Origin: an uncultured virus (IMG/VR IMGVR_UViG_2660238032_000003)
Taxonomy: Duplodnaviria > Heunggongvirae > Uroviricota > Caudoviricetes
DNA length: 64,000 nt
Reading direction: 5' to 3' (one strand)
Virus record (IMG/VR): IMGVR_UViG_2660238032_000003
Numbering within the stretch: position 1 is the stretch's first letter; each line of letters starts with the position of its first letter. The notes under the pieces are model-generated. The model saw nothing but the letters and a program-made list of their open reading frames with translations. It did not search any database and was not told where the DNA came from. This document shows, piece by piece, positions 24,607 through 50,083 of this stretch. The position numbers were made by a program, and so were the translations under genes.

Positions 24607-24609
24607 TAT

Positions 24610-25740: not shown

Positions 25741-25744
25741 TGCC

Positions 25745-28196: not shown

Positions 28197-28200
28197 TTTT

Positions 28201-29785: not shown

Positions 29786-29800
29786 TAAGGGTGAAAAAAT

Positions 29801-32556: not shown

Positions 32557-32570
32557 AAAGGGAGATAAAA

Positions 32571-33167: not shown

Positions 33168-33180
33168 GAGGTGGATATAA

Positions 33181-33984
33181 GTGTCAATAAAAAATATAGA
33201 AATTCAAGATAGTGATGGGAATATCTATTATCCTCATACTAATGCATCCGTAGTTAAGAATGGATCTACTACAGTTGCTGAACAAATGAAAGAAATTGCG
33301 AACAAAGTAGATAATATTAAAATTGCAGATGGAACTACAACAACCAAGGGAATAGTTAAATTAAATAATGCTGTTAATAGTACAAGTCAAGCAGAAGCAG
33401 CCACCCCATTAGCTGTAAAAACTGCTATGGATAAAGCAAATGAGGCTTTTCAGTATGCCAGTAATGGGAAAAGTCTTATTGCTGGCAAGGTAGGAAATGT
33501 TACAGGAAACAATACACATGCGGAGATAGCAAATAGAATACAAACAGATAAGAATACAGCAGCTAGTAATCTTAATAGTAAAGGTGTAAGTGCTAATGGA
33601 AATGAAGCTTTAGCTAGTTTAGTAGGAAAGATAGCTAACATTACTTTAGCTGGTATGGGAGGAAAAAGATTCACCTTTGGAAATACTAACTTTGATGGCA
33701 CTACTGATATACGTTTTCAAAGAGTAAATAAAGATTTTCAACCAGAGTCAGGATATTCAAATACTTACTATGTAACTATAACATTAAATTTTAAACCTTC
33801 ATATGGATTGGTTTATGCTAAGACTTCATCATCAGCTGGTTTTAATGTTTCAACTTTAGTAAATTATAATGCAGTATGGACAGGAACAGGTTTACTCCAA
33901 CCAATAATATCTGGTAATACTATAAAAATTCCATTTTCTGATAAATATGTAACTTCAAATGTAACATATATATTTTTTGAATAA
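33181..33984 (+). CDS. tail fibre / receptor-binding protein
   Basis: Fibre repeat TTTKGIVKLNNAVNSTSQAEAATPLAVK; beta-rich C-terminus. Confidence 0.8.
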   Translation: MSIKNIEIQDSDGNIYYPHTNASVVKNGSTTVAEQMKEIANKVDNIKIADGTTTTKGIVKLNNAVNSTSQAEAATPLAVKTAMDKANEAFQYASNGKSLIAGKVGNVTGNNTHAEIANRIQTDKNTAASNLNSKGVSANGNEALASLVGKIANITLAGMGGKRFTFGNTNFDGTTDIRFQRVNKDFQPESGYSNTYYVTITLNFKPSYGLVYAKTSSSAGFNVSTLVNYNAVWTGTGLLQPIISGNTIKIPFSDKYVTSNVTYIFFE

Positions 33985-34007
33985 ATAACTTAGGAGGTAA
34001 TTAAAAT

Positions 34008-34316
34008 ATGAAAAATTTAATAGTTTATGATAGTACAGGAAATGCTTTCTTTGTTCAAGAAGGCACTTTTTATGAACCACAAGGAGAAATAAAAGCACTT
34101 CAAGCTGATATTCCAGATAACAAACTACTTAAAGGTGTAGATATTAAAACAGGACAACCAATACTAGAGGATATACCAAAATCACAAATTGAACTACTAC
34201 AAGAAGAACTTGCACAAAATACAAAAGAAATAGCTAAGAAAGATTTAGCTATAGAACAACTACAAAAAGATTTAGCAGATTTAACAAAACAAATAGCTTT
34301 AGGAGGTAATGTATAA
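34008..34316 (+). CDS. putative tail fibre chaperone
   Basis: LIVYDSTG start, C-terminal coiled coil; between fibre and XkdX. Confidence 0.55.
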   Translation: MKNLIVYDSTGNAFFVQEGTFYEPQGEIKALQADIPDNKLLKGVDIKTGQPILEDIPKSQIELLQEELAQNTKEIAKKDLAIEQLQKDLADLTKQIALGGNV

Positions 34317-34712: not shown

Positions 34713-35729
34713 GTGGTTATTTATATGAATTGTAATGAAGAATTTGTTATAAAAACTATAGGAAAACTAACTTTAGAATTTAATTTAAATTGGGAACAAC
34801 AAAAAATAGTTAGAGATTGTTTATACTATTCCCTTTACAACTATGAGGTTGTTTCAAAAGAAAAGTCTTTAATTAAAGGAGATATGCCTGAAAAGATATT
34901 ATTATATTTAAGTGTAAAGAAACTAGCTGGATATAGTGCTGCTACACTTAAAAATTATAAATATCTTTTAGATAAGCTTGCATATTTTTTAAATAAGCCA
35001 GTTACAACAATTACAGTAAATGATATAAGAATGTTTTTGGTTATTCAAGGTAAAGGCAAAAAGCCTAGTACAATTAATTCTATAATTTTTTATATTAAAG
35101 CTTTTTTTAATTGGTTAGAAAGTGAAGATCTAATTACCAAGAATCCAGTTAAGAAATTAGAAATAAATAAATTGCCTAAAAGATTAAGAAAAGCTCTAAC
35201 TTTAGAAGAATTAGAAAGATTACGAATAGCATGTAAAACAAATAGAGAACGTGCATTGTTAGAGTTTTTATTTTCGACAGGATGTAGAGTTACTGAAACT
35301 GTTGATTGTAATATAACAGATTTAAATTTTAATGAAAATATATTAAAAGTAGTTGGAAAAGGTGATAAGGAAAGAATAGTATGTTTTGGAGAAAAAACTA
35401 AGTTGTATTTAAAGAAGTATATATATGAGGATAGAAGAAAAGATAATGATCCTGCATTGTTTGTATCAGAAAAATTTCCATATAAAAGATTGAGTAAAAG
35501 AGGGATAGAACTAATAATTTCAAAATTAGGAAAAAGAGCTGATTTTAATAAAAATATATTTCCTCATTTACTTCGACATACGATGGCTACAGTTGGATTA
35601 CAGAATGGAGCAAATTTAATAACCATACAACAATTATTAGGTCATACTGATCCAGCTACAACACAAATATATGCTCAAAATTCAATTGAAAATATAAAAT
35701 ATGAATACAAGCAGCATATGAATTTTTAA
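34713..35729 (+). CDS. tyrosine recombinase (XerD-like) between tail-fibre and lysis modules
   Basis: SAM-like N-domain; TGCRVTE (R), GKGDKER (K), HLLRHT, LLGH, TTQIY: catalytic set intact. Confidence 0.93.
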   Translation: MVIYMNCNEEFVIKTIGKLTLEFNLNWEQQKIVRDCLYYSLYNYEVVSKEKSLIKGDMPEKILLYLSVKKLAGYSAATLKNYKYLLDKLAYFLNKPVTTITVNDIRMFLVIQGKGKKPSTINSIIFYIKAFFNWLESEDLITKNPVKKLEINKLPKRLRKALTLEELERLRIACKTNRERALLEFLFSTGCRVTETVDCNITDLNFNENILKVVGKGDKERIVCFGEKTKLYLKKYIYEDRRKDNDPALFVSEKFPYKRLSKRGIELIISKLGKRADFNKNIFPHLLRHTMATVGLQNGANLITIQQLLGHTDPATTQIYAQNSIENIKYEYKQHMNF

Positions 35730-35783
35730 GAGATTAGTTAATTCTAGTCTCTTTTTTAGTTGCTAAAGAAAGAAGGTAGACAG

Positions 35784-36008
35784 ATGAATGAAACGGATAC
35801 TGTACTAGAAATTAAAGAAAGGTTAGTAAGAATAGAAACCCTTTTAGAGAAAAACTCTGAAAATTGGGATGAAAAAATTAAAGTGGCAAATCATAGGATA
35901 CAGGATTTAGAAGATACAATTAAATGGATAAGTAGAACCGCAATAGGTGGACTACTTACTGGAATATTAGGAATATTATTTAGTTTAACTAAAATAGGAG
36001 GAATGTAA
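35784..36008 (+). CDS. XhlA-like holin/haemolysin
   Basis: ERLVRIET coiled coil, KWISRTAIG plus C-terminal TM. Confidence 0.8.
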   Translation: MNETDTVLEIKERLVRIETLLEKNSENWDEKIKVANHRIQDLEDTIKWISRTAIGGLLTGILGILFSLTKIGGM

Positions 36009-36009
36009 A

Positions 36010-36300
36010 ATGGAATATACAAATTTAGTACAGTTTATACCTGAAAGTTTATTTATAGTTATTGCTGGCATATATGTAGTTGGAATATTTCTTAAAAAGT
36101 TAGAGAGTATACAAGATAAATATATAACAAGTATATTAATGCTATTTGGTATTACTTTTGCAATATTATTAAGTATAATTAACACAGAATATAGAGTTAC
36201 ATTAGATGTTATTGTGAATGGTACATTACAAGGTGTGTTATGCTGGGGAGTAGCTGTTGGTATTAACCAAACGGCTAAACAATTAAATAAGCAAGAATAG
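36010..36300 (+). CDS. phage holin
   Basis: Three TM segments, QGVLCWGVAVGINQTAKQ; precedes endolysin. Confidence 0.85.
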   Translation: MEYTNLVQFIPESLFIVIAGIYVVGIFLKKLESIQDKYITSILMLFGITFAILLSIINTEYRVTLDVIVNGTLQGVLCWGVAVGINQTAKQLNKQE

Positions 36301-36316
36301 TTTTAGGTAGCAATAA

Positions 36317-38245
36317 ATGCTACCTTTTTATGATTTAAATGGAGATTATAAAAGGAGAGATTTTGTGAATAGATTAAATTATGAAGAAATACCTTTAGAT
36401 GGGGTTATAGAAAGTCCTATAGATTTGAGAGATTATAATTACAAGGATTTTTGCAGCAATAATGATAAGGATTTACCGAATGAATTTGAAATAAATTATC
36501 AATTTGAACCTAGAAATCAAGCTAATACTTCTACTTGTGCATTTCAATCAGTAACAGCTCTTATAGAAATAATAAAAAATACAAATGAATATTTATCAGA
36601 AGGATTTTTAAATGCTATGAGAGATGAATATGGTTACCAATTAGAAAAAGGTGCAGTAACAAGAGAAATTATGAAATTAGCTTGTGAGAGTGGAATAATT
36701 CCTAAAATAGATTTTCCTAATTTAGAGGATTATCCAAAGATAAGTGAGTTATTTGATTCTTTAAATAACAAAAATGAATTAATAGAAAAAGCAAAAAGTT
36801 TAAAATGTCAATCATATGTGAGAGTTGATTTAGAAGATGTTCCGATATATTTATACAATGAAAAGAAACCTTTAGTTATAACAACGGTATTATATGATAG
36901 TTTTTATAAAGTAAATCATCCAGGTACAGATGGAATTGTAGAATATCCAAGTGAAGGTAAAAAATGTGGTCGTCATGCGATGGTTATTGTAGGTTATAAA
37001 TATAAAGATAATAAATTATATTTAAAAATACAAAATAGTTGGGGAAAATATTGGTGTTTGAATGGTTATTGCTATGTAAATATAGAAGACACAAAAATGA
37101 TTGATGAAGTATGGGGATTTACTGATATACCTAAGAAAGTTATTATAACTAAATATAAAATAGGTTGGAATAAAGATAAAATAATTGATAAGTGGCTCTA
37201 TTCCGAAGATGGTGAACATTTAATAGAAAACGGATGGAAAGAAATTAAAGATGAATGGTACTATTTTAAAAATTCATTTACTATTAATGGAGATTGGATT
37301 AAAGATAATGGACATTGGTACTTTCTACAATCAGGTTCTTGTAAAATGTTAAAAAATGATTGGTTATACTGGAATAACAAATGGTATAGGTTTGCACAAG
37401 ATGGGAAAATGATAACTGAATGGTATCAAAATGAGAAGGGAGAATGGTTCTATTTAGATATAGATAATGGATATGCATATACTGGGTGGGTATTTATACA
37501 TGGTAAATATTATTACTTTAATGAAAATTGTATAATGCAAACAGGTTGGATTAAAATTAATGAAGAATGGTTTTATTTAGATTCAAGTGGAGCAATGAAA
37601 ACTGGTTGGTTAAATGATAATGGAACATGGTATTACCTAGAAGAACAAAGTAATGGTCATATGGGTAAATGTTATATGGATTGTGCTACAACAATTAATG
37701 CAAAGCAATATTCTTTTGATAAAAATGGTCACTTAATAGAAGAAAACTTAGTAAGCGAAAAATGTGCTAGATTTATTGGAAGTTGGGAAGGATTTTATGA
37801 AAAAGCCTATGCTGATCCTTATTATGGTGAAAGTATTAAAGATTATTGGACAATAGGATATGGCACTTGTTATTGTTCGATTCCAGAAGCATTTCCAGAT
37901 GATTTAGAATCTACTTGTACAAAAGAACAAGCTTTAAATTGGTTAAAACAAGAGGCAAGCAAATATTCTGAAAAATTAAAGAATGACTTAGATAATAAAG
38001 GTGTATCTTTAAATAGTAATCAATTTGATGCATTAATAAGTTTTGCATATAACTGTGGAATACAATCATTGTTTGGATCTACATTATATAATTATATTTG
38101 TAGTGGTGGAAGAGATTCATCAAAAATAAAAGAATACTTTAGAATGTGGAATAAAGCAAATAAAGAATATTCAGATGGATTAGATAGAAGAAGAATTAGT
38201 GAATCTAATTTATTTATTGATGGAAATTATTTAGGAAATGTATAA
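36317..38245 (+). CDS. endolysin: papain-like C1 peptidase + cell-wall-binding repeats + GH24 lysozyme
   Basis: RNQ..STC, HAMVIVGY, QNSWG; repeated GW..x..WYY units; WEG..AYAD..WTIGYG, QFDALISFAYNCG, GLDRRR.E. Confidence 0.88.
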   Translation: MLPFYDLNGDYKRRDFVNRLNYEEIPLDGVIESPIDLRDYNYKDFCSNNDKDLPNEFEINYQFEPRNQANTSTCAFQSVTALIEIIKNTNEYLSEGFLNAMRDEYGYQLEKGAVTREIMKLACESGIIPKIDFPNLEDYPKISELFDSLNNKNELIEKAKSLKCQSYVRVDLEDVPIYLYNEKKPLVITTVLYDSFYKVNHPGTDGIVEYPSEGKKCGRHAMVIVGYKYKDNKLYLKIQNSWGKYWCLNGYCYVNIEDTKMIDEVWGFTDIPKKVIITKYKIGWNKDKIIDKWLYSEDGEHLIENGWKEIKDEWYYFKNSFTINGDWIKDNGHWYFLQSGSCKMLKNDWLYWNNKWYRFAQDGKMITEWYQNEKGEWFYLDIDNGYAYTGWVFIHGKYYYFNENCIMQTGWIKINEEWFYLDSSGAMKTGWLNDNGTWYYLEEQSNGHMGKCYMDCATTINAKQYSFDKNGHLIEENLVSEKCARFIGSWEGFYEKAYADPYYGESIKDYWTIGYGTCYCSIPEAFPDDLESTCTKEQALNWLKQEASKYSEKLKNDLDNKGVSLNSNQFDALISFAYNCGIQSLFGSTLYNYICSGGRDSSKIKEYFRMWNKANKEYSDGLDRRRISESNLFIDGNYLGNV

Positions 38246-38459
38246 CACTTAGATAAAAATATAGTATAATAATATCTGACTGAATTACACATAAAGTTAG
38301 GAAACAATGGACAAAATATAGTATTATGTAAATATAAACAAAAACCCATGAAAGTACTCTAAATACATCATGAGTTCTTAAGTTATAATAGAGTATAAAT
38401 TATTGCTTCTATTATAGCATATTGGATATAAAATATGAATAAAAATAGGAGGAATTAAT

Positions 38460-39587
38460 ATGAATTTATTAGACATAAAGGATGAGGGAAATAAACTTAA
38501 TAAACTATTAATAGAAACTAAAGAAGTAATGAATCAGATAGTATCAATCTCTGATTCCAAAGAATCTATGAAAGTAGAATTATTTAAAAAAGCTTTTTCA
38601 GCAGAAAAAGCATATCAAAATGGTCATAATGCTAATTTTGTTACTGAAGTAGAGACGATAAGAAGTAAATATTGTAATAATTTTATTTCTGACTTAAGAA
38701 AAATCAAATTTACTAAGTCAATTATAGAATTAACTAGTATATCTGAAAAATTTGTTTATTATAATTTTCAATATTTTAAGAACGAGTTTATTAAATTGAT
38801 TGATATGATAGATGATTATACTGCATATTCTAGTGGAGTTGATTCTTTTGAAGAAATTGAAAAACTGTATAACAAAATAAAATTTGTTATAGATTTATAT
38901 GAAAAAATTAAAATTAATATTAATAAAATTAATGAATTAGCAGAAGTGTTATCTCCAGGAATTGAAGATTGTATATTTAAAATAAGATTTATGAATGAAA
39001 ATAAGTCAATATATTCCTTAAAAGATAACATATTATTAATAGAAAATATATATAATAATGTAAATAAGTTGGTAGGAAATACAGAAGAAGATTTAAAATA
39101 TTATAGAGCTGAATCAGGTTCATTTTTACTGTATCTAGGTGGTTGTGTTACTACATTGTTAACAATAAAACCTTTATTAGAATTTGCATATAAAATATAT
39201 TCAGAACAATTAAGTCCTAAAGCAAAGATTGAATTGGAATTAAAAAAAGATGAATCAAAACTAAGTAACATTAAAGTTAGAGGAGAATACCTTAAATTAT
39301 TAAAAGATGCGACTGAAAGTAAGGAAATAAGTTCTTTAAAAATAAGCGATAAACAACAAGTATTGAACATAATAGGAGATTTAGATAAGGATATAAAAGA
39401 TTTATTTTGTAAAAATCCGTTTATTAAATTGAATGATAAAGAATTAGGTCCAAAAGAAAATTCTAATGATAATATACCAATAGTTTTATTAGAAGAGAAA
39501 AATGAAAATATAGAGAGTTTAGACCAGTTAGAAGAAATAGCATGTGATAATGTATGTGGTAATGGAAATACTACATTAGAAGAATAA
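38460..39587 (+). CDS. hypothetical moron protein (375 aa)
   Basis: AGGAGG RBS, own upstream TATAAT; helical, ESGS motif followed by hydrophobic helix. Confidence 0.65.
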   Translation: MNLLDIKDEGNKLNKLLIETKEVMNQIVSISDSKESMKVELFKKAFSAEKAYQNGHNANFVTEVETIRSKYCNNFISDLRKIKFTKSIIELTSISEKFVYYNFQYFKNEFIKLIDMIDDYTAYSSGVDSFEEIEKLYNKIKFVIDLYEKIKININKINELAEVLSPGIEDCIFKIRFMNENKSIYSLKDNILLIENIYNNVNKLVGNTEEDLKYYRAESGSFLLYLGGCVTTLLTIKPLLEFAYKIYSEQLSPKAKIELELKKDESKLSNIKVRGEYLKLLKDATESKEISSLKISDKQQVLNIIGDLDKDIKDLFCKNPFIKLNDKELGPKENSNDNIPIVLLEEKNENIESLDQLEEIACDNVCGNGNTTLEE

Positions 39588-39613
39588 AAAATAGTTATAA
39601 GGAGGTGAGATTA

Positions 39614-39778
39614 ATGTTAATCTTAAGAATAAATATTGCAATAGCAAGAAAAAAAATATATTTATTAGATAAATTATTTTTCCTGCCTTCTTCATTTAAA
39701 GAAAAATGTGCTAAAAAAGTATGTGACGATATAATTAAGATAACTAATAAAATTAAATTGAAAAAAATAATAGAATAA
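39614..39778 (+). CDS. small basic hypothetical protein (54 aa)
   Basis: AAGGAGGTG RBS; MLILRINIAIARKK... Confidence 0.55.
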   Translation: MLILRINIAIARKKIYLLDKLFFLPSSFKEKCAKKVCDDIIKITNKIKLKKIIE

Positions 39779-39825
39779 ATTATAAAAACAATAGAACAGA
39801 AAAGACCTATGAATTCAAAGCATTT

Positions 39826-39869
39826 AAGGTCAGTACGTAGATTAATTTCTATATGCTGACCTTATTTTT
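39826..39869 (+). terminator. intrinsic terminator
   Basis: aaggtcag...ctgacctt stem then atttttg. Confidence 0.65.
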
Positions 39870-40068
39870 GTTGAAAAATAGATTATATTAAACTTGTCAT
39901 ATAAATCTATTGTATAAAATACATAAATATTACTATTTTTAACAAACAAGTAGTATTAATATATAATTAACTACTGGTTTACTCTTTTAAATAAATTTGT
40001 ATTATTGACAATATTTTAATATATTATACAATATATAGTGTCTAATTTATTAAGGGGGATAAAAAATT

Positions 40069-40773
40069 ATGAAATGGTACGAAAAAACGTGGGTAATTAT
40101 TTTGTTTTTAATTTTCTTTTTTCCAGTAGGATTATATTTAGTATGGAAACATAGTGAATTTAACAAAAAAACTAAAATTATAATAACAGCAGCAATTTTA
40201 GTTATTGCACTTATAGGGGGAGGTAGTAATTCTCAAACGCCTAAAACTTCTAATGCAATATCAAGTAAAGTTGAAAAATTAGAAGAACAATATAAGCCTG
40301 TTTTAGAAAGTGGAAAAACGTATGATATTATGACAGATGATGAAGGGAATATTGTGGTTGATATGCTTGATAATTGGGATAAATTAAGCGATAATTTTAA
40401 GGCAGAATATCAAGAATCTAAAAGTATTATAGAAAATAGTAAAAAAGCTTATGATGATAAGAAAGCTGCAGAAAAAGAAGCTGAAATTAAAAAAGAAGAA
40501 TTAAGAGCGTCACTAATAACTAATAGTCAGGAAATTGTTAAAAACAATTTAAAAGCTCCAAAATCAGCAAAATTTCCTTGGAGTTTTGATAAATATAGTA
40601 TAACTGAATGTAATTCTACAACAGATGGATTTAAAGGTTATATAGTAATGGGATATGTAGATGCAATAAACTCATTCAATGCTGAAATACGAAGTGATTT
40701 TGCAGTTCAAATAGAAATAAGTGATAATATGGAAAAATATAAATTAATTAATTGTACAATTCAAGCAAGATAA
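40069..40773 (+). CDS. membrane-anchored extracytoplasmic moron protein
   Basis: KWYEKTW..FFPVGLYLVWK TM hairpin; C-terminal LKAPKSAKF...VDAINSFNA domain; TTGACA/TACAAT promoter upstream. Confidence 0.7.
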   Translation: MKWYEKTWVIILFLIFFFPVGLYLVWKHSEFNKKTKIIITAAILVIALIGGGSNSQTPKTSNAISSKVEKLEEQYKPVLESGKTYDIMTDDEGNIVVDMLDNWDKLSDNFKAEYQESKSIIENSKKAYDDKKAAEKEAEIKKEELRASLITNSQEIVKNNLKAPKSAKFPWSFDKYSITECNSTTDGFKGYIVMGYVDAINSFNAEIRSDFAVQIEISDNMEKYKLINCTIQAR

Positions 40774-40818
40774 TAAATGGAGTAGTAAGAAGATATTAGT
40801 TTTTTACTGCTCCATTTA

Positions 40819-40916
40819 TTATTATAGTTCTATGTATAGAACTATAATAAGTTCCAAAAGTGTACCTTAAATAAGTTTCCTTTTTAGAATTCCATATGAG
40901 TTTCACTTTTGGAATT
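40819..40916. repeat. palindrome plus iteron-like repeats (candidate origin of the mobilisation module)
   Basis: ttattatagttcta/tagaactataataa; gttccaaaagtgtac (inverted), agtttcctttttagaatt, agtttcacttttggaatt, followed by very AT-rich DNA. Confidence 0.45.
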
Positions 40917-41045
40917 TCATATATTACTTAGTTTTATATTAATTAAATTATATTAATTATATATATTAACACTGAATATAAAAATAATTTGATAGAGATC
41001 TGTATAATAAATAGTTTTATGCTATAATAACAAAGAGGTGTTGTT

Positions 41046-41306
41046 ATGGAAAATGAGATTTTAGAACTATTAAGGGAAGTAAAACACAGTATTAGATCAT
41101 TGGAATTAAAGATTGATGAAAATACACAAGATATTAAAGAATTAAAAGATGGTCAAAGAAGAATCGAAAATAAAATTGATATAACATATAATCAAGTAGC
41201 TAGAACAGCAGAAGATATTACTAGCATCAAGAGTGACATGAATACAGTTGAGGCTGTAACAGCTAAGAATTGGCAAGATATAGCGAAATTAAAAGCAATC
41301 AAATAA
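41046..41306 (+). CDS. small coiled-coil protein
   Basis: Heptad pattern; own TGnTATAAT and terminator. Confidence 0.65.
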   Translation: MENEILELLREVKHSIRSLELKIDENTQDIKELKDGQRRIENKIDITYNQVARTAEDITSIKSDMNTVEAVTAKNWQDIAKLKAIK

Positions 41307-41410
41307 AAACTAGGAGATTATAATTTTATCTCTTAGTTTTTTTATTTTAAATAGTTGTATTTATTATAGAAAATAAAAAAATAGATGTATTGGATTAACC
41401 CCCAATACAT

Positions 41411-41569
41411 CTATTTTTTCTTTTTATAAGATTCATATAAACTCTCTATAAATTCACCCATAGAACAATCAAGATCTACAATTTCTTTTTTCATGTCTTT
41501 CTTTATATCTTTATCTATAAGAACAGTTAGTTTTTCTCTATTTTCATTTTTAGATACTTTTTCCTCCAC
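41411..41569 (-). CDS. ribbon-helix-helix (CopG/ParG-like) regulator (52 aa)
   Basis: GTG start with GGAG RBS; KLTVLIDKDIKKDMKKEIVDLDCSMGEFIESLY; divergent from rep. Confidence 0.65.
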   Translation of the reverse strand: MEEKVSKNENREKLTVLIDKDIKKDMKKEIVDLDCSMGEFIESLYESYKKKK

Positions 41570-41640
41570 AATCTCAACTCCATGTATTATTTTATAATTT
41601 AATTATATCATAAAATAAATTAAAAGTATAATAAAAGTAG

Positions 41641-41703
41641 TTGACTTATACGGCAAAAAGATTTAATATAAATTTATACAGAAAAATTATTTATACGGCA
41701 AAA
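41641..41703. promoter_or_regulatory. rep promoter with 13-bp direct repeat operator
   Basis: TTGACT -35; ttatacggcaaaa at 41647-41659 and 41691-41703. Confidence 0.55.
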
Positions 41704-41731
41704 TGAAAAAAAGAAGAGGTGAAACAAAAAA

Positions 41732-42427
41732 ATGGCTAAAGATTATTTGAAATTTAGAAATGCAGTAAAGAAAGATAATAACTTATCTTTAGAAGAATCT
41801 TATATGTTAGAGCTTATCTTTGATTATTATAATGTATCTATAGGATATGCTTACCCATCTTATGAAGTACTCATGTCTGATTTAAAAACTAAAAGAAGAG
41901 CTAAAGTTTCTAAATTATTAAAATCTTTAGTTAAAAAAGGTTATATCTCAATTACTAAAGCTGGTAAGAAAAATACTTATAAATTACTAAAATATTTATT
42001 CTTAGATAATAAACACAATGATTCAAACGGTAATAAACATATAGATGGTCAAATGGATTTTTCAGAAGTAACTGAAGAAGTAAAAGAAATTATAAGTCTT
42101 GGTTTTTCAGCAAAGCAAGCAAAGAGTTTATTTAAAATTGCTAATGAGAAAATAGAGAAAGTTATAAGTGCATTTAATTATGCTGCATCTAAAGGTGCTA
42201 AGAATTTATACTCTTATACTATAGCAGCATTAAAGGGTAATTATGCAAAGATTAAAACAAATAAAGAAGAGGTTGTTAAAAAACTTAAATTTAATAACTT
42301 TGAGCCAAGATCATACGATTATGATTCTTTAGAAAATAAATTATTAGGCTGGGAAAATGGTCCTGAGTATATAGATGAAGAATCAAAATCAACTTTTGAT
42401 TTAAAAGGAATGTTGGCATTGATTTAA
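41732..42427 (+). CDS. putative replication initiator (N-terminal wHTH, DnaB/DnaD-like C-terminal tail)
   Basis: GYAYPSYEVL...LKSLVKKGYI...NTY wHTH; FNNFEPRSYDYDSLENKLLGW resembles clostridial DnaD/DnaB C-termini. Confidence 0.7.
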   Translation: MAKDYLKFRNAVKKDNNLSLEESYMLELIFDYYNVSIGYAYPSYEVLMSDLKTKRRAKVSKLLKSLVKKGYISITKAGKKNTYKLLKYLFLDNKHNDSNGNKHIDGQMDFSEVTEEVKEIISLGFSAKQAKSLFKIANEKIEKVISAFNYAASKGAKNLYSYTIAALKGNYAKIKTNKEEVVKKLKFNNFEPRSYDYDSLENKLLGWENGPEYIDEESKSTFDLKGMLALI

Positions 42428-42452
42428 TTAAATAAGCTAGGAGGGATAATAC

Positions 42453-42680
42453 ATGAGATTGTATGTTGAAAAAGAAGAATGTAATAAATTACAAGATGTT
42501 GAAGATAACATAGATATTATAAGAAATATTGTTTGTTATATGTCTGTAAATTGTAAATCTATGATAGTTGGTCATGATATTCAAGGTGAATATAAAGAAA
42601 TAGAACATTATCTAAAAATAGCTTCTCAAAAAACCCAAAAATTAAAACTGGCTATGGAAAAAGAATTAGAAAGAGTTTGA
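42453..42680 (+). CDS. hypothetical protein of mobilisation module
   Basis: 75-aa ORF with GGAGGG RBS. Confidence 0.6.
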   Translation: MRLYVEKEECNKLQDVEDNIDIIRNIVCYMSVNCKSMIVGHDIQGEYKEIEHYLKIASQKTQKLKLAMEKELERV

Positions 42681-42793
42681 AAATATGGATATTGAAATTT
42701 TAAACAAATAAAAAAGACAGCAACTTTAAGCCACTACCTATACAGCAATATTAGTATAACTTAAAGTTGCTCTAAAATCAATAGGGGGCATTT

Positions 42794-44353
42794 ATGGATA
42801 TAATTGAACAACTTAAGATTTTTACAATAGCTACTGGTGGTATAGCTGCTAGTGGAGAAATATTGTCTTATTTTATTAGAAATAAAGCTAATAGGGTAGG
42901 AAGGCTTGCAACAGGATATATTGAATCAAAAGATAAACTAGAAAATATTTTGGGAAACACAGGATTAATATTAAGTAAAGATATACAATTAAAAGAACAG
43001 TTTGACTTTGAAGGTAGTGTTACTATAGCACCTACTGGAAGTGGTAAAACAAGTTCTTTTTTCTTTCCTAATTTACTTAGTAATAATATAAAAGGAAGTA
43101 TAATAGTAACAGATCCTAAAGAAGAGCTGTTTAAATTAACTTCAAAATACCAGGAAAGGGTTTGTGGTAGAAAGGTACTTAAATTTTCTCCGTTATCTCC
43201 ACAAACAAGTGAGAAATATAATTTATTGACTAGTTGCAAAGATAATAGTGAGGTTGTAGAGTTATCTTCAACTCTTCTTTTTAATGGTGCTTTGTCAATT
43301 GAACTAAGTACAGGAAAGAAAACAGGGGGAGTAGAATGGATACAGATGGCTGAACCACTTTTAGCAGCAGCTTTACTTTATGCTAAGAATTTGGAATATC
43401 CATTTAATAATATAGAGTTTGCATTTAAGTTAATTATTAATCTAGATACAGAACAGTTAGATTCTTTATTTAATGGTAGCAATAATATAGATTGTATAAA
43501 CCAATGGAATATATTTAAAACTGTTACTGGAGCTGATAGAACAGAAGGTAGTATTAAAATAACATTAGCAAGTAATATGAAATTATTTATAGATAACAGA
43601 ATAAATCAAGTTGGAGTTGAAAATACATTTGATATAGAAAAATTTAGAGAAGAACCTACAATATTATATGTTTGCTATCCTGAGAATAAAGCACCTTATT
43701 TGGCACCATTTATAGCACCGTTCTTCAGCCAAGCATTAAACAAGCTAATTGACAGTTATACAGAAAATAATCTTCCTATAACTATGCTATTCGATGAATT
43801 TGGTAATATAGGTATGTTAAATAATATGAGCGTAAATGTAGCAACTATAAGAAGTCGTAAAATAAGTATGAATATTTGTCTACAATCTATAACTCAGCTA
43901 TTTCAAACCTATGGAGTAGCTAATGGAAAAGCAATTCTAAATAATCTTAAGACTAAAATAATCCTTCCTGGATTATCTGATTCAGATACTACAAATTATT
44001 TATCCGATTTATGTGGAAATAAAGAAATAACTATATGTAATACAAATGTTAATAAGCAAAATATTACACACAGTTATTCTAAAACTAAAATCAAGCTATT
44101 TGAAAATAGTGAGTTAAGGTGTCTTGAGGATAACCAAGTATTAATTATAACAAGTAATAAACAACCAATATTAAGTATACAGGATAGATATTATACAAAC
44201 TCTGTATATACCAGCAATATATATAAAGCTACTTCTAATGTTAACCATAATAATACTAAAAAAATAGATATTGATAGTGAGATTGAGAAGCTAAAGCTAG
44301 AAATTATAAAAGATGATGTTGTAAAAGATGTATCAGAAGAATTATTCAACTGA
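42794..44353 (+). CDS. type IV coupling protein (VirD4/TraG family)
   Basis: Walker A APTGSGKT, VTDPKEE, YNLL, Walker B MLFDEFGNIG, RSR.I...LQSITQL..YG. Confidence 0.9.
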   Translation: MDIIEQLKIFTIATGGIAASGEILSYFIRNKANRVGRLATGYIESKDKLENILGNTGLILSKDIQLKEQFDFEGSVTIAPTGSGKTSSFFFPNLLSNNIKGSIIVTDPKEELFKLTSKYQERVCGRKVLKFSPLSPQTSEKYNLLTSCKDNSEVVELSSTLLFNGALSIELSTGKKTGGVEWIQMAEPLLAAALLYAKNLEYPFNNIEFAFKLIINLDTEQLDSLFNGSNNIDCINQWNIFKTVTGADRTEGSIKITLASNMKLFIDNRINQVGVENTFDIEKFREEPTILYVCYPENKAPYLAPFIAPFFSQALNKLIDSYTENNLPITMLFDEFGNIGMLNNMSVNVATIRSRKISMNICLQSITQLFQTYGVANGKAILNNLKTKIILPGLSDSDTTNYLSDLCGNKEITICNTNVNKQNITHSYSKTKIKLFENSELRCLEDNQVLIITSNKQPILSIQDRYYTNSVYTSNIYKATSNVNHNNTKKIDIDSEIEKLKLEIIKDDVVKDVSEELFN

Positions 44354-45278
44354 AGAGGATAAAGGATTATTAGAAAAATATAATAAGAAAGTTACTGGTG
44401 CTAGAGCTAATGTATATTTTTGTGTATTTAGAGTAGGTAAAAAGATAAAAGATTTAGGTCAGGTTGAAGCCTTCCAAAAGCATATGGAAAGAGAAATGGA
44501 TGTGATTAATGCAGATCCAAGACAAAAAGATAAAAATAGAGTATTAATAGGCAACAACAATATAGTTGAAAATGTTAAAAATCATGTTTATGGAATTAAG
44601 ATAAGAAGTAATGCTAATATAGCAACAGACCTTGTACTAACTACTGGAAATGGATTTTATAATAGTTTACCACCACAAGAAAGGGAAACATGGATACAGG
44701 AAAATGTTAAGTTTCTTAAGGAGAATTTTGGTGATAACTGCATTTATGCTACTTTACACATGGATGAAACCACACCACATTTACACGCTTTAATAGTTCC
44801 AAAATTTTATAACAATGAAAAAAATAGATATGAATTATCTTCAAACAAATATTTTGATGGAATTGAAAAAATGAGAGCCTGGCAGGACAAATATTCAAAT
44901 CATATGAATAAAAAATTTAATAATCTTATTAGGGGAGTAAGAGGTTCTAAGGCAAAGCATATGGATATAAAAACTTATTACTCTCTAATAACGAAAAAAC
45001 TTGATCTAATAGATGATAGGCAAGTATTAGCATATGCTAAACATAGTTATTTATTAGAGAAGAGAGTTAAAGCTTTGGAATACACATTGATGGAAATAGA
45101 AAAAAATGAAGATACAAAGGATCTAGTAGAGAAAATAAATAAATTAGATAAAAATAACAAGATTTATAAAGAGACAATAAGAACAATTACTAAAAAATAT
45201 GGCTTAAAAGAAAAAGATATTTTAGATATAGTAAGTAAGATTGAAAATAAGAATGATAAAAAAGAGAGGGAGAGATAG
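44328..45278 (+). CDS. mobV: MOBV (Mob/Pre) relaxase
   Basis: HMERE motif I, IRSNA, HMDETTPHLH (HxDExxPHxH), QD, RGVRGSKAKH. Confidence 0.9.
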   Translation: MYQKNYSTEEDKGLLEKYNKKVTGARANVYFCVFRVGKKIKDLGQVEAFQKHMEREMDVINADPRQKDKNRVLIGNNNIVENVKNHVYGIKIRSNANIATDLVLTTGNGFYNSLPPQERETWIQENVKFLKENFGDNCIYATLHMDETTPHLHALIVPKFYNNEKNRYELSSNKYFDGIEKMRAWQDKYSNHMNKKFNNLIRGVRGSKAKHMDIKTYYSLITKKLDLIDDRQVLAYAKHSYLLEKRVKALEYTLMEIEKNEDTKDLVEKINKLDKNNKIYKETIRTITKKYGLKEKDILDIVSKIENKNDKKERER

Positions 45279-45814
45279 TGGGTTTTATAAATAATTATTT
45301 AAAAGAACGTAAAAAGGATATTCAGCAATATGTAGTTATTAAAGATACTACATTAGAAAATGGAGATTTTCTTAAAAAAGGTAGTAATTTTATAATTGAT
45401 TTTATTAGAGATAATAAGATATGCATACACTTCCCAGAAAATACTCAAAGTATATTAAATAAGTACAAAGAGGAATTTGTTACAATAGATAAACTGTTTG
45501 AAATTTCTATGAGATATGAAAGTAATAATAATCTACATCAGCATATCGAAGCAGCTTTAGAAGATAATAAAATATTATCTGAACAATTATATAATTCAGA
45601 ACAGGAAAAGATACATGATAGAGAATGGTATGAAATAGATAAATATGAGTGGGGAAAAGAAAGAGAAGAATTAATTGATACAATAGAGAGAGTTAATAAT
45701 AAAACTAATATCTATAAAAAGACTATAAATAAACTATGTAAAAAGTACAATATAAATAAAAAAGAGGTATTAAATATAGTTGAAAATATAAAATCAAATG
45801 AAAGAGAGCGATAA
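45278..45814 (+). CDS. hypothetical protein sharing the relaxase C-terminal domain
   Basis: C-terminus IYKKTINKLCKKYNINKKEVLNIVENI..ERER parallels relaxase IYKETIRTITKKYGLKEKDILDIVSKI..ERER. Confidence 0.65.
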   Translation: MGFINNYLKERKKDIQQYVVIKDTTLENGDFLKKGSNFIIDFIRDNKICIHFPENTQSILNKYKEEFVTIDKLFEISMRYESNNNLHQHIEAALEDNKILSEQLYNSEQEKIHDREWYEIDKYEWGKEREELIDTIERVNNKTNIYKKTINKLCKKYNINKKEVLNIVENIKSNERER

Positions 45815-45815
45815 T

Positions 45816-45965
45816 ATGATTTATATTGATGATATTATTACTGACGGTAATTTTAAAGAATGGATTGTTGAAAGCTATATAATAGATTATGATAATGTCA
45901 CAGGGTACGTTTGCAGAAATATTAAAAGTAATGAATATAAAATATTTGAAGAGGTTGAATTTTAA
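45816..45965 (+). CDS. small hypothetical protein (49 aa)
   Basis: Coupled to previous stop; followed by hairpin ggaagg/ccttcc. Confidence 0.45.
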   Translation: MIYIDDIITDGNFKEWIVESYIIDYDNVTGYVCRNIKSNEYKIFEEVEF

Positions 45966-46170
45966 TAAATACTAATTTTGTTAGGGAAGGTTAACGCCTT
46001 CCTTATTTTTATAATTATAATTGGAATACTAGGACTAATATATTACATATTTTAAAAAATGGTTAAGTTAAAAAGATTGAGAAATAAAAACATACTTACT
46101 ACGGAATTTTCACATTATGTAATATCTACATAATTTAAAGTAGACATAATATATAGATAAAAGTATTAAG

Positions 46171-46247
46171 TTGCTATTTTACAAAACTTTATTTTATACT
46201 TTAAGTTATGATATAATGTAGAAGTATAATTTTTAAAACTTGGAGGA
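46171..46247 (+). promoter_or_regulatory. element-supplied promoter and RBS for miaB
   Basis: TTGCTA-18bp-TATACT, TGnTATAAT (46209-46217), GGAGGA; all inside attR. Confidence 0.55.
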
Positions 46248-46253
46248 ATACTA

Positions 46254-47621
46254 ATGAATTTTGATATAGACGCTTTAAAAGAAAATAAAATAGATAAAAA
46301 AGAATTCTTCTTTATTTCTACCTTTGGTTGTCAAATGAATGAAGAAGATTCTGAGAAGCTTTCAGGAATGCTTAAGTCGCAAGGCTATGAAGAAACAGAA
46401 AATAGAGATGAAGCTTCAATTGTAATTTTCAATACATGTTGTGTAAGAGAAAATGCTGAAAATAAGGTTTTTGGAAATCTTGGAAGATTAAAAAATCAAA
46501 AAGAGAAGAATCCTAATTTAATAATAGCTCTATGTGGTTGTATGATGCAACAAAAGGGGATGGCAGATGAAATTTTAAGTAGATTCCCTTACGTTGACAT
46601 AATATTTGGAACTCATAATGCATACAAGTTCCCAGAATATTTGCATAGAGTTCAAGTTGAAGGCGTTCAAGTTAAAGAGATTTTTGATAAAGAAACTGAA
46701 ATTGTAGAAGGTGTTCCAATAGACAGAAAAAGCAATGTAAAAGCTTTTGTTACTATAATGTATGGATGCAATAATTTTTGTACATATTGTGTAGTTCCTT
46801 ATGTTAGAGGGAGAGAAAGAAGTAGAAGACCAGAAGATATAGAAAATGAAATAAAAGAATTGGTTTCTAATGGATATAAAGAAATTACTTTACTTGGACA
46901 AAACGTAAATTCTTATGGTAAAGGTCTTGAAGAAGAAATTACTTTTGCACAACTTTTAAGAAGAATTAATGAAATAGATGGACTTGAAAGATTAAGATTT
47001 ATGACATCTCATCCTAAAGATTTAACTTTAGATGTGGTTTATGCTATAAGAGATTGCGATAAGCTTTGTGAACAAATACATTTACCTGTACAAAGTGGTA
47101 GTAATGAAATATTGCAAAAAATGAATAGACATTATAATAAAGAACAATATTTAGAATTAGCTAAAAAAATAAGAGAAGAAATCCCAGATGTAACATTCTC
47201 AACAGATATAATAGTTGGATTCCCAGGTGAAACTGAAGAAGATTTTGAGGAAACAATTAACTTAGTAAAAGAAGTTAGATATGATGCAGCATTTACTTTC
47301 ATATATTCAAGAAGAAATCACACACCCGCAGATAAAATGGAAGATCAAATTCCAGATGATGTTAAACATGATAGATTTAATAGACTTGTAGCTGCTGTTA
47401 ATGAAGGTATTGTTGTTGGAAATAAAGCTGCTGAAGGAAAAATATATGAAGTTTTAGTTGAGGGAACTAGTAAGAATAATGAAAACAAATTAACTGGTAG
47501 AACAAGAAATGCTAAGCTTGTAAACTTTGATGGTTGTAAAGAAATGATAGGAAAACTTGTTAAAGTTAAAATAATTGAAGCTAAATCATTTTCTTTAGTA
47601 GGAGAAGTTGTAGAGCAGTAG
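46254..47621 (+). CDS. miaB: tRNA-2-methylthio-N6-dimethylallyladenosine synthase MiaB (chimeric: first 25 codons element-derived)
   Basis: [20 protein letters not shown], radical-[12 protein letters not shown]-terminal TRAM domain. Confidence 0.97.
46303..46350. other. attR of prophage (core GGTTG 46326-46330)
   Basis: See attL; crossover falls in the Gly-Cys codons of miaB. Confidence 0.88.
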
Positions 47622-47796
47622 GGTATTATTAGACAAACTGTATTGGGATTAATAAATAATAATCTTAATACAGTTTATTATTTGGACTATATAATAAAAA
47701 CCCCTACAAAGTATTTGATGCTTAGTAGGGGTTTTCTACAAGAGATTAAAATATAGAGATATAAAAATATATTTTGATATTAATATTTTTATGAAA

Positions 47797-47848
47797 GTGC
47801 CATTTTTTCGCGTGCAGAACATATGTTCTATACACGCAAAAATGGCAC
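47797..47848. repeat. 52-bp imperfect palindrome centred on a perfect SOS-box-like GAACATATGTTC
   Basis: gtgccattttt..gcgtg / cacgc..aaaaatggcac arms; GAAC-N4-GTTC at 47817-47828. Confidence 0.55.
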
Positions 47849-47943
47849 CTTCTAAGTTTGTTTACACTAAATAAATATAAATAGCATTAAATATAGATAA
47901 TTATCAAAATATAATTGAATTATTTATCATCTACTAATATAAT

Positions 47944-48423
47944 CTATTTGATTATATCTACAAAAATACAATCTAGTATATTTTCTAATTGCCTTGGGTT
48001 CATTTCGATTTGAGATCCGATTTTACCGCCACTAAATACTATTGTTTCACAATTCAAAGCAGTGTTATGAAAAAAAGTTTTAAATGTTTTCTTCATTCCG
48101 ATAGGAGAGCATCCACCTCTTATATATCCTGTTATTTTATTAATGTCTTTAATGTGAATCATTTCAATACTTTTTTCAGATGCAGCTTTTGCAGCTTTTT
48201 TCATGTCTAATTCTTGTGCAACTGGAACAACATATACATAAAATTCTTTAGAGTGTCCCTGAGTAATCAAAGTTTTAAAAACTTCATTTTCATTCTTATT
48301 TATTTTATTTGCAACAGCTACGCCATCTATTTTTCCATCTTTATTTTGATAGTTATAAGTGGTATATTCTATTTTGCTGCTGTCTAAAATTCTCATAGCA
48401 TTAGTCTTACTTTCTTTTGCCAT
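47944..48423 (-). CDS. ybaK: Cys-tRNA(Pro) deacylase YbaK
   Basis: KTNAMRIL, VFKTL, TGYIRGGCSPIGMKK, SGG.IG. Confidence 0.93.
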   Translation of the reverse strand: MAKESKTNAMRILDSSKIEYTTYNYQNKDGKIDGVAVANKINKNENEVFKTLITQGHSKEFYVYVVPVAQELDMKKAAKAASEKSIEMIHIKDINKITGYIRGGCSPIGMKKTFKTFFHNTALNCETIVFSGGKIGSQIEMNPRQLENILDCIFVDIIK

Positions 48424-48976
48424 AATTTTTCCTCCTGTTATATAAATAAAATATTATTGAAAAAAATCTATAGATAAGTGTAATGATTTTAAAATTCATC
48501 TACTTTTTAATTTCATGTGAAAAATTGTAGATAAATACATATTAATTATATATTTATCTACAATTTTTGTCCAAATTTTCATCCAACATCTATTTTGAAA
48601 ATTAAATTTGAAAATTATTAAAAAGTAGAAATGCTAGATTGAACAGGAATTCAAATTTAAATTTTCATACAAATTAATTACTATAATATATGTAAAATTT
48701 ACGTTTTTATTAAAATTATAATTAGAAAAAAGTAATAATTTTACAACTAGAGGAATGAGTTTGTTTGTAAATAATAATTATCATTTGAGGTTAAAAGAAG
48801 TTGGATTTTGTAAACAAATTAAATGTTTAGAATTTGGTTTATCGGCAATAATTTAAGTTAAACAGGTTGTTAAAAATAAAAAATATAAATTATAATTTAA
48901 AATTAATAAGAGAGAAATTAAAACCAAGGTTTAAATTTAGAAAAAAATCAAAATTTACACTAAAAATCGTTTAATT

Positions 48977-49008
48977 TTATTTCGGGAAATATACATTTCC
49001 CGAAATAA
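48977..49008. promoter_or_regulatory. perfect 14-bp-arm palindrome upstream of xerC
   Basis: ttatttcgggaaat-atac-atttcccgaaataa adjacent to TTGATT/TATAAT. Confidence 0.5.
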
Positions 49009-49093
49009 TTGATTAAAAATTCATTTATTGGTATAATATATTTAAATCTTATAAGAATAGATTTAAATTATAGTAAATGATGGTGATAAATAA

Positions 49094-50083
49094 ATGAATT
49101 ATGATATTGAATTTTTTAAAAATAAAGATCTCCCCGATTCTGTAATAGATTTTTTAAATTACTTAGAAACAATTAAAAATAAATCTAGTAATACAATTGC
49201 TGCTTACAAAAAGGATTTAACAATTTTTTTCAGATTTATGAAACTATATAGAGGAATTGTTAAAGATAAAAAAATAGAGTTTGAAGATATCGATATTACA
49301 GATATAGATGATGAATTTTTAAAATCAATACAATTAAGAGATCTTTATGCTTTCATGTCTTTTATTGAAAAATATAGAAATAATAGCGCTTATGCTAGAG
49401 CTAGAAAAGTTGCAACATTAAAATCATATTTTAAATTTTTGCAAGGTAAAGCTAAAATAATTGTGGACAACCCTACAACCGAATTAGAATCCCCTAAAAT
49501 AAATAAAAGACAGCCTGTATATTTAACATTAGATCAGAGTATACACTTATTATCTTCATTAGATAAAAATAATAAAAATTATGCTAGAGATTATTGTATA
49601 TTAACACTTTTTTTGAACTGTGGAATGCGTTTATCTGAATTATGTGGTATATCTATCGAGAAAATCAGAAATGATATATTAGCAATCATAGGTAAAGGTA
49701 ATAAGGAACGTACTGTTTATTTAAATGAAGCTTGTTTAAAATCAATCGAGAATTATATGAGAATTAGAGATGATTCAAAGGCTTTGCCAGAATATAAAAA
49801 ATTTCTATTTTTATCTTCTCATAATAAACCTATTAATCAAAGGACAGTTGAAATAATGATAAAGAAACATGTGAAAAATGCAGGTTTAACGGATGCGAAA
49901 TATACTCCTCATAAATTAAGACATACTGCTGCTACACTTATGTACAAGTATGGAGATGTAGATATAAGAAGCTTACAAAATATATTAGGTCATGAAAACA
50001 TTTCTACAACTCAAATTTATACTCATGTAGATAATGATACATTAAGAGATGCTGTAAAATCAAATCCATTATCAAAATTATAA
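49094..50083 (+). CDS. xerC: chromosomal tyrosine recombinase XerC-like
   Basis: CGMRLSEL, GKGNKER, HKLRHT, LGHENISTTQIYTHV; host context. Confidence 0.85.
   Translation: MNYDIEFFKNKDLPDSVIDFLNYLETIKNKSSNTIAAYKKDLTIFFRFMKLYRGIVKDKKIEFEDIDITDIDDEFLKSIQLRDLYAFMSFIEKYRNNSAYARARKVATLKSYFKFLQGKAKIIVDNPTTELESPKINKRQPVYLTLDQSIHLLSSLDKNNKNYARDYCILTLFLNCGMRLSELCGISIEKIRNDILAIIGKGNKERTVYLNEACLKSIENYMRIRDDSKALPEYKKFLFLSSHNKPINQRTVEIMIKKHVKNAGLTDAKYTPHKLRHTAATLMYKYGDVDIRSLQNILGHENISTTQIYTHVDNDTLRDAVKSNPLSKL

Follow-up and report, generated by a model that had tools for sequence, protein, structure and literature searches.

A block of plasmid-like and mobilization genes lies between the lysis genes and the right end of a prophage in a 64,000-nucleotide stretch of DNA from an uncultured virus of the Caudoviricetes (IMG/VR record IMGVR_UViG_2660238032_000003); this whole stretch is referred to below as the window. 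Comparison of homologous loci showed that the two central genes of the block, which encode a VirD4-type coupling protein of type IV secretion systems (T4CP) and a MobV relaxase of the MOBV family, form a recurrent phage-associated lineage that occurs on a wide variety of phage and phage-plasmid backbones from clostridia. In the window both are intact, and they evolve under purifying selection. The original prediction, made from the letters of the window, was that a complete tailed prophage carries its own mobilization module and may spread both as virions and by conjugative mobilization. The observation was essentially right, and the cassette appears to recur in phages more widely than had been claimed; the interpretation is partly supported, and spread by both routes is offered here as a hypothesis. 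The window consists of low-GC DNA (22 to 34% GC), and the closest named homologues come from Clostridium botulinum.

Searches with profile hidden Markov models confirmed the identities that had been proposed for the pair. The T4CP (519 aa; 42794 to 44353, plus strand) matched T4SS-DNA_transf (E value of 4.8e-59, 200.9 bits) and TraG-D_C (79.8 bits), both above cutoff, as well as TrwB_AAD_bind. Its nucleotide-binding motifs, Walker A (GSGKT) and Walker B (LFDEFG), are present, and residues G82, K85, and E335 are invariant among 31 homologues. One weak hydrophobic stretch near the N terminus (residues ~8 to 28) is conserved in the same 31 proteins, with a Kyte-Doolittle mean over 19 aa of 1.25 in the window protein and 1.0 to 1.8 across the family. 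The relaxase gene (316 aa; 44328 to 45278, plus strand) starts within the end of the T4CP gene. Its product matched Mob_Pre (3.8e-31, 108.9 bits against a cutoff of 25.5) and the MobV equivalog model NF041497 (114.6 bits against a cutoff of 100). MOBV relaxases have an N-terminal HxxR motif with the catalytic histidine and a metal-binding motif of the form HxDE..PHxH. The translated gene contains HMER and HMDETTPHLH, which fit these motifs, and the relaxase motifs thus appear to be intact.

The pair belongs to an operon headed by a gene for a Rep-like HTH_36 protein (231 aa; 41732 to 42427, plus strand). The helix-turn-helix Rep of the original prediction was borne out by matches to Pfam HTH_36 (27.5 bits, cutoff 25) and to the replication initiation protein family phrog_270; a match to DnaD_N was below cutoff. 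The C-terminal part of this protein resembles a Rep3-type initiator in the phage-plasmid-like contig L039, and part of the gene matches plasmid rep genes. Next come a 75-aa open reading frame (ORF) with no family match that is conserved in the related prophage G002 (42453 to 42680, plus strand), the T4CP gene, the MobV gene, two ORFs of 178 and 55 aa that match no known family (45278 to 45965, plus strand), and a terminator-like hairpin (45982 to 46005, plus strand).

Two relatives allowed estimates of selection. G002, an IMG/VR provirus, comes from the same species and occupies the same site; its flanks are 99.5 to 99.95% identical to the window and its block is 96 to 97% identical. L035, from Candidatus Clostridium helianthi, encodes a Rep-like protein, T4CP, and MobV that are 67%, 71%, and 68% identical, respectively, to those of the window. 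The ratio of nonsynonymous to synonymous substitution rates (dN/dS) was 0.10 versus G002 and 0.19 versus L035 for the T4CP gene, 0.36 and 0.15 for the MobV gene, and 0.34 and 0.26 for the Rep-like gene. The endolysin gene, which served as a comparator, gave 0.26 versus G002. Upstream of the T4CP gene, a perfect 12-nt inverted repeat with a 29-nt loop (42719 to 42771, plus strand) is a candidate origin of transfer (oriT). It ends 23 nt 5' of the T4CP start codon and has a DNA fold of -9.4 kcal/mol (z score of -3.73) that none of 200 shuffles equaled. The hairpin is kept, with changes, in G002 and L035.

Comparison with related clostridial prophages, which had been proposed as a check, provided the main evidence for a phage-associated lineage. 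The query alignment contained 31 T4CP homologues, all 513 to 541 aa long, and scanning of three collections yielded 43 loci. In 17 of these the T4CP was at least 39% identical and at least 2 kb of upstream DNA was available; three were repeats (L033, L054, and L055), leaving 14 distinct loci that were annotated. Holin and/or endolysin genes were located 0.6 to 8.3 kb upstream of the T4CP-relaxase pair, on the same strand, in 13 of the 14, usually preceded by tail genes; the upstream region of L063 had no recognizable family. The relaxase gene directly followed the T4CP gene in all 12 loci tested with tblastn. The position after the lysis genes was maintained on backbones of Sipho_tail/Gp37, Mu Gp48, and BppU types, and the endolysins varied as well (Amidase_2, Amidase_3, GH25, and phage lysozyme). 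A ParM-type ALP_N gene was near the pair in seven loci (L029, L030, L036, L038, L039, L040, and L052); thus, many of the relatives look like phage-plasmids. Loci with a T4CP of 32 to 35% identity (L034, L041, L075, and L076) had other contexts, without an adjacent Mob_Pre gene. In L052 (11517 to 13734) an inserted ORF that encodes CapR and DUF4379 domains separates the N-terminal part of the relaxase gene from the C-terminal part.

The phylogeny of the T4CPs was consistent with these contexts. In a maximum-likelihood tree of 22 rows, all of the phage-context T4CPs were in one clade of 19 (support of 97/100), outside of which were two proteins from nonphage contexts and one CD1115-type T4CP. 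The tree left out the duplicates L033 (equal to L032), L054, and L055 (both equal to L029), the fragment L034, loci L070, L071, and L076, and the short contigs L049, L051, L057 to L062, L065 to L069, L072 to L074, and L077. The closest nonphage homologue is on the C. botulinum conjugative plasmid pGA0702E1CS, whose T4CP and MobV are 68% and 58% identical in amino acid sequence to those of the window and are encoded in the same order. This plasmid T4CP nests inside the phage clade, adjoining that of the window (91/87). The plasmid (NZ_KT901798.1; loci L021 and L042) has two mobilization sets, one consisting of a CD1115-type T4CP and a MobP2 relaxase and the other of the small T4CP-MobV pair. 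The small pair adjoins a plasmid replication gene, and the plasmid also has a pLS20-like type IV secretion system (T4SS). The CD1115-type protein of the plasmid was separate from the window T4CP in the tree.

A MobV relaxase with its own VirD4-type T4CP, but no mating pore, is the standard kit of elements that borrow a helper T4SS. As had been predicted, no mating-pore genes were found in the window: the ORFs of the prophage are phage genes or small unassigned ORFs, the right flank is core chromosome, and neither the insert nor the flank contains an unexplained ORF of VirB4 size. We favor helper-dependent conjugative mobilization of the phage genome as the explanation for the cassette, because the gene set is that of a borrower and because pGA0702E1CS carries a T4SS and the cassette on one replicon; we judge the chance that this is correct to be about even. 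That plasmid is a possible example of a helper, a C. botulinum replicon on which a pLS20-like T4SS and this type of cassette occur together. In the proposed mechanism, the serine integrase would excise the entire prophage as a single circle, and the relaxase would then nick oriT, possibly at the hairpin from 42719 to 42771, and remain attached to the 5' end. The dedicated T4CP would dock the relaxase-DNA complex onto the mating channel of a coresident conjugative plasmid or integrative conjugative element (ICE), and one strand would be transferred and recircularized. In the recipient the phage genome would integrate beside miaB or begin its own cycle. The outcome would be a receptor-independent, contact-dependent route in addition to virions. 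Spread of this genome both as virions and by conjugation is, on these predictions, plausible. A broader proposal is that clostridial temperate phages and phage-plasmids keep a VirD4-type T4CP and a MOBV relaxase after the lysis genes in order to send the whole genome through a resident mating channel, that such elements travel by two routes, and that the cassette is exchanged with conjugative plasmids; this is more tentative, and we rate it somewhat below an even chance.

Several observations weigh against mobilization. No helper T4SS is present within the window. The T4CP has at most one weak membrane segment, and it falls below the equivalog cutoff of the NCBIfam model for the CD1115 family (NF045973; 191.9 versus 250 bits). 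The candidate oriT hairpin was not found upstream of the T4CP homologue of pGA0702E1CS, and it may be simply a hairpin conserved in three related prophages. Six of the annotated loci were drawn from a collection of predicted viruses, which biases the context toward phages; the same pattern was present in five genome loci and four metagenome loci with recognizable upstream genes. Among 50,697 deposited phage records there was no close relative of the T4CP (the best match was 27% identical, in uncultured fecal contigs), and the best match to the relaxase in blastn and tblastn searches of these records was ~32% identical. PHROGs has no family for either protein. The absence of a close T4CP from the deposited phages gives no sign that virions with this cassette were ever grown. 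Furthermore, the accessible text of PMC3357382 reports that deletion of the relaxase-translocase cassette of Bacillus phage 0305phi8-36 gave no laboratory phenotype and that its function is unknown.

One possibility that does not involve conjugation is that the cassette works inside the cell, in the start of rolling-circle replication or in maintenance of a plasmid state, with the ATPase acting as a pump for phage DNA (into a forespore or a daughter compartment, for instance). Many relatives carry ParM-type, Xer-type recombinase, or Rep genes beside the pair, and the window phage has Rep, ParA, and ParB genes and a Rep-like gene at the head of the operon. The hosts sporulate, the window contains no helper, and compartment pumping has been guessed at for the relaxase/FtsK cassettes of Bacillus phages. 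Bacillus phages do have relaxase and ATPase cassettes with no known role (PMC3357382). However, the ATPase is of the VirD4/TraG type, with a TraG-D_C domain, rather than of the FtsK/SpoIIIE type, and the relaxase passes the equivalog model for conjugative mobilization relaxases. In addition, a homologous pair is on a true conjugative plasmid, and the phage already possesses separate replication genes. An intracellular role is therefore considered unlikely.

The layout of the rest of the block suggests where it may have come from. The conserved block is ~5.3 kb long (40822 to 46150) and lies between the endolysin gene and its cargo on one side and the right junction on the other. The cargo consists of three ORFs of 375, 57, and 234 aa (38460 to 40773, plus strand) with no Pfam, NCBIfam, or PADLOC family matches, and it is followed by a terminator (40773 to 40819). 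At the left edge of the block is a perfect 32-nt palindrome (40819 to 40850), with two 15-nt arms separated by 2 nt, and just 3' of it are two ~24-nt direct repeats (~40873 to 40925). This palindrome and repeat zone (40819 to 40925) may act as an operator or origin, or it may be the scar of a recombination event. A link between the palindrome and the junctions was sought and none was found, the half-site having 25 matches with up to three mismatches where 26 were expected. The first gene of the block encodes an 86-aa coiled-coil protein (41046 to 41306, plus strand) that is 55% identical to a RefSeq "plasmid stabilization protein" of a 3.9-kb C. chauvoei plasmid. A 52-aa ORF on the minus strand (41411 to 41569) had only subthreshold matches. 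It is the sole candidate for the ribbon-helix-helix regulator of the original prediction, and its best match, to a VapB-like family (E value of 0.005, 17 bits against a cutoff of 60), did not confirm that assignment. An Rfam scan of positions 38000 to 46400 gave no matches.

Independent copies of the prophage at the same site delimit the block. In addition to G002, Logan contigs from three sequencing runs of different studies (X2, X3, and X4) were aligned to the window. One 20-kb contig from X3 is collinear with the window over the holins, endolysin, variable cargo, and block and on into miaB; contigs from X4 span the same parts, and the X2 contig resembles G002. In all three runs collinearity extends into miaB, beginning either at the lysis genes or at the block. 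Thus, the block accompanies this prophage lineage in four other assemblies. The cargo genes of G002 and of the X3 and X4 contigs are different from those of the window, and homology breaks at 38306 and 40822 in X3 and X4 and at 38307 and 40822 in G002, resuming in all three at the palindrome. Breaks at matching points indicate that the block is a conserved unit beside a variable cargo slot. G002 also has a longer relaxase C terminus (403 aa) and an extra gene by the right junction, for a 686-aa HATPase_c_3 protein. The G002 cargo includes three HATPase-domain proteins, of which this is one, with no PADLOC matches. Cargo differs between strains at two spots, the slot between endolysin and block and the right-junction side (38246 to 40822 in the window; 10841 to 13460 and 3220 to 5280 in L025). 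In L035, tail genes, a holin, a GH25 endolysin, and Ltp are followed by the Rep-like, T4CP, and MobV genes, a 170-aa ORF, and then miaB.

The block might be viewed as a captured passenger, a small mobilizable plasmid that recombined into the accessory region and is now neutral, selfish, or slowly decaying. Its size and gene set are those of a small Mob plasmid, the ORF at 41046 to 41306 matches a gene of a 3.9-kb plasmid, and the Rep-gene stretch matches plasmid rep genes. The left edge is a sharp break in homology at a palindrome, the interval between lysis genes and attachment (att) site is a usual place for cargo and varies between strains, and the relaxase gene of L052 has been split by an inserted ORF. 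However, the pair stays intact with low dN/dS, occupies an identical position on numerous unrelated phage backbones from several species, and forms a mainly phage-borne clade. Furthermore, without an excision function a passenger would move only with the whole phage circle, which in practice makes it equal to the explanation that we favor. As a distinct explanation, passenger status appears quite unlikely.

The prophage and its block are best described as one unit. In the genome G018, from a related species, an insert of ~45 kb (~1166 to 46208) is missing, and the left flank and miaB are 62 bp apart on one contig. Window positions 1 to 1165, which contain a GNAT gene and a 93-aa ORF, match G018, and homology resumes on the right from 46209, at miaB. 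Since these two regions are neighbors in G018, everything between them constitutes a single insert of ~45.0 kb. The host gene miaB (46254 to 47621, plus strand, 455 aa; Pfam UPF0004, Radical_SAM, and TRAM) is intact and 94% identical in DNA to that of G018; beyond it the core chromosome continues with a ybaK-like editing gene and genes for an Xer recombinase, LexA, methionine gamma-lyase, Hfq, MiaA, MutL, and MutS. The mobilization genes lie, as had been described, between the lysis genes (35760 to 38245) and the right junction, with miaB beyond; the end coordinate of 46330 that had been claimed for the module overshoots 77 bases into miaB. None of the ORFs of at least 50 aa between 38.3 and 46.2 kb was found to encode a recombinase domain, and the only integrase gene beside a junction is that of the phage (1716 to 3419). 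A blastn-short search with both junction regions for att-like copies inside the insert (1400 to 46050) found none above chance, the best match being 14 nt (E value of 0.03) in the sheath gene. The block thus has neither a recombinase nor an att site of its own, as had been proposed, and an internal att duplication of the kind expected from independent insertion was not seen. Inclusion of the whole stretch in a single insert bounded by a serine integrase, together with the lack of its own recombinase or att site, indicates that the cassette is probably an integral accessory module of the phage and not a separate island. Because the block appears unable to excise alone, it would move only together with the complete phage genome, once that genome is free in circular or episomal form. 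The prediction of one excisable circle is supported by the single insert with no internal att-like copy, with the size corrected from 44.7 to ~45.0 kb.

These findings bear on whether the prophage and a separate integrative mobilizable element (IME) might have accreted in tandem at the same attB site, each excising alone. IMEs are often in tandem with prophages (accessible text of PMC5704250), phage-ICE tandems driven by phage integrases have been described (PMC13651849, in its accessible part), and the differences between G002 and the window cluster at the right junction. However, the insert lacks an internal copy of either junction above chance, there is no second integrase in or beside the block, and relatives hold the pair inside phage genomes. 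In the 42.5-kb metagenome contig L055, the pair is followed without interruption by two helix-turn-helix genes, a gene for a 662-aa serine recombinase (29% identical to that of the window), and genes for a repressor, Rha, YqaJ, and RecT, the order expected for the window prophage closed into a circle, provided that the phage genome includes the block. No joints around 38 to 41 kb were seen in the contigs, which cannot show rare forms. A joint of 35347 to 46007 was disregarded because its shorter side was just 20 letters. In one X2 contig, position 46302 is connected back to 40932 through 32 additional letters, a join that could reflect a repeat or another organism in the metagenome. Tandem accretion is considered improbable. 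An assembly artefact that joined a plasmid contig to a prophage, for which no supporting point was found, can practically be dismissed: the same junctions and gene order are present in G002, in single contigs of X2, X3, and X4, and in L035, a different species in which the block also adjoins miaB, so that misassembly appears to be excluded.

The ends of the insert were located less precisely. The left junction zone (attL, 1166 to 1205), which begins where homology to the empty site stops near 1165, and the right junction zone (attR, 46155 to 46218) both carry GTTGCT (1181 to 1186 and 46170 to 46175). A perfect 10-bp inverted repeat, 46155 to 46164 with 1196 to 1205, is symmetric about this common sequence. 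The attP of a serine integrase would show such symmetry, and the repeat is consistent with the attP arm pairing that had been predicted. However, an inverted repeat of at least 10 bp appeared in 181 of 5,000 shuffles of the two junction arms; these are weak candidates for att arms that place the crossover roughly. Between 46100 and 50000 the window and G002 differ at 44 positions (mismatched or gapped), all before 46219, and the host DNA from 46218 to 50000 has no differences. This clustering appears to be a mosaic edge at the right junction. Because the differences run to 46218, the crossover could lie further to the right. Long direct repeats were sought on either side of the insert, and none were present, as would be the case with a serine integrase. 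A single inverted match of 18/24 between the two ends, from a 24-nt scan with a threshold of at least 18/24, was rejected as chance, and an exact 12-nt repeat (1169 to 1180 and 45859 to 45870; E value of 0.46) was treated likewise.

The phage that carries the block appears to be a temperate, myovirus-like phage with a sheathed tail. "Complete tailed prophage" was a fair description: PHROGs assigned genes from the integrase through the lysis genes, and no broken structural gene was seen. On the minus strand are the genes for the integrase, a 567-aa large serine recombinase (1716 to 3419; Pfam Resolvase, Recombinase, and Zn_ribbon_recom; phrog_95 integrase, 7e-121), and a CI-type HTH_3 repressor (3453 to 3959; Pfam and PHROGs). 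An 81-aa protein (6126 to 6371) matches the phage antitoxin family phrog_4681 (6.8e-35); a partner toxin was not identified. The early region (6773 to 10475, plus strand) encodes a replication initiator (6773 to 7624; phrog_3584), a ParA-like protein (7849 to 8619; phrog_164), and a ParB-like protein (9474 to 10475; phrog_4715). These genes suggest phage-plasmid ancestry or a double lifestyle. A DUF5651 protein encoded at 8869 to 9468 is common to this prophage and L039. Packaging, head, and tail genes occupy positions 14811 to 34316 on the plus strand, with PHROGs matches to small and large terminase subunits, portal, protease and major head protein, adaptors, sheath, tape measure, baseplate, and fibers. 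Between the tail fibers and holins is a gene for an Xer-type tyrosine recombinase (34713 to 35729, plus strand; phrog_1; NCBIfam recomb_XerA_Arch, 226.7 bits against a cutoff of 220), which may resolve dimers in a plasmid state. Homologues 43% identical to it are encoded between the endolysin and T4CP genes in L030 and L036. A search for an invertible tail-fiber segment beside this gene found no convincing inverted repeats. The lysis cassette (35760 to 38245, plus strand; Pfam and PHROGs) consists of two holin genes and the endolysin gene (36317 to 38245), whose unusually long product (642 aa) has a papain-like Peptidase_C1 match, choline-binding repeats, and a phage-lysozyme domain.

It is customary to regard phages and conjugative elements as distinct transfer routes, each with its own host range. 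A T4CP-MobV cassette that is conserved, under selection, and fixed in position in many clostridial phages provides a concrete system in which to ask whether a virus can be mobilized by mating. If the proposed mechanism is correct, then receptors would not limit how prophages spread among spore-forming anaerobes, and gene exchange between phages and plasmids would gain a direct vehicle, since the plasmid copy nests inside the phage clade. We found no description of a VirD4-type T4CP and MOBV cassette in clostridial phages in the literature searched, which covered few subscription journals and no supplements and thus does not prove novelty. According to the accessible text of PMC3357382, the only described phage-borne relaxase and ATPase cassette is of another family and has no known function.

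That cassette, the "DNA translocation operon" of Bacillus phage 0305phi8-36 (orf200/201) and its relatives SPO1, GBSV1, and Gamma-like phages, resembles that of the window in placing a relaxase gene beside one for a coupling or translocase ATPase in nonstructural accessory DNA, close to recombination genes in the temperate members. It differs in combining a MOBC relaxase, similar to CloDF13 MobC, with an FtsK-like translocase rather than a Mob_Pre relaxase with a VirD4/TraG-type T4CP. In the same accessible text, the authors stated in 2012 that they had found no members of other relaxase families in phages (PMC3357382). The window cassette may work like the Bacillus operon by analogy, but it is not a member of it.

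Integrative mobilizable elements are a second point of comparison. Streptococcal IMEs pair a MOBV relaxase with their own T4CP. Like the IMEs of Firmicutes, which have a relaxase with or without a T4CP, the window block has a relaxase, here with a T4CP, lacks mating-pore genes, and would depend on a helper T4SS, and these IMEs integrate by site-specific recombinases that include serine recombinases (PMC5704250, accessible part). IMEs are defined there as carrying their own integrases and produce no virion, whereas the sole integrase in the window is that of a complete phage, the cassette itself lacking one. Thus, the window contains mobilization genes without a mating pore but no integration module belonging to the block. 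The original description as a phage/IME hybrid is supported in its architecture, with the module inside the phage. The IME label is not the best, because the stabilization gene, Rep, and Mob resemble a small plasmid backbone and many relatives are phage-plasmid-like, with ParM-type genes. The block appears to be a small-plasmid-type backbone fused to a self-contained mobilization cassette.

Phage-ICE tandems, as far as the accessible text of PMC13651849 describes them, consist of two elements joined by accretion and include the complete transfer machinery of an ICE, whereas the window has one element with no internal att site and no pore; in both cases a phage integrase could excise the prophage, which could then make use of conjugation. 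Conjugation domains are just sporadic in phage-plasmids (accessible part of 10.1101/2025.11.07.687105), and relaxases or oriT sequences are nearly absent from them in the accessible portions of surveys. Unlike phage-plasmids, which are extrachromosomal replicons in lysogeny, the window copy is integrated between host genes by a serine integrase. Its gene content is nevertheless that of phage-plasmids such as P1, N15, SSU5, and the IEBH community of Bacilli and Clostridia (PMC7969092 and PMC10879196), in which phage structural and lysis genes are combined with plasmid replication and partition genes, represented in the window by those for Rep, the ParA-like and ParB-like proteins, and the HTH_36 Rep-like protein.

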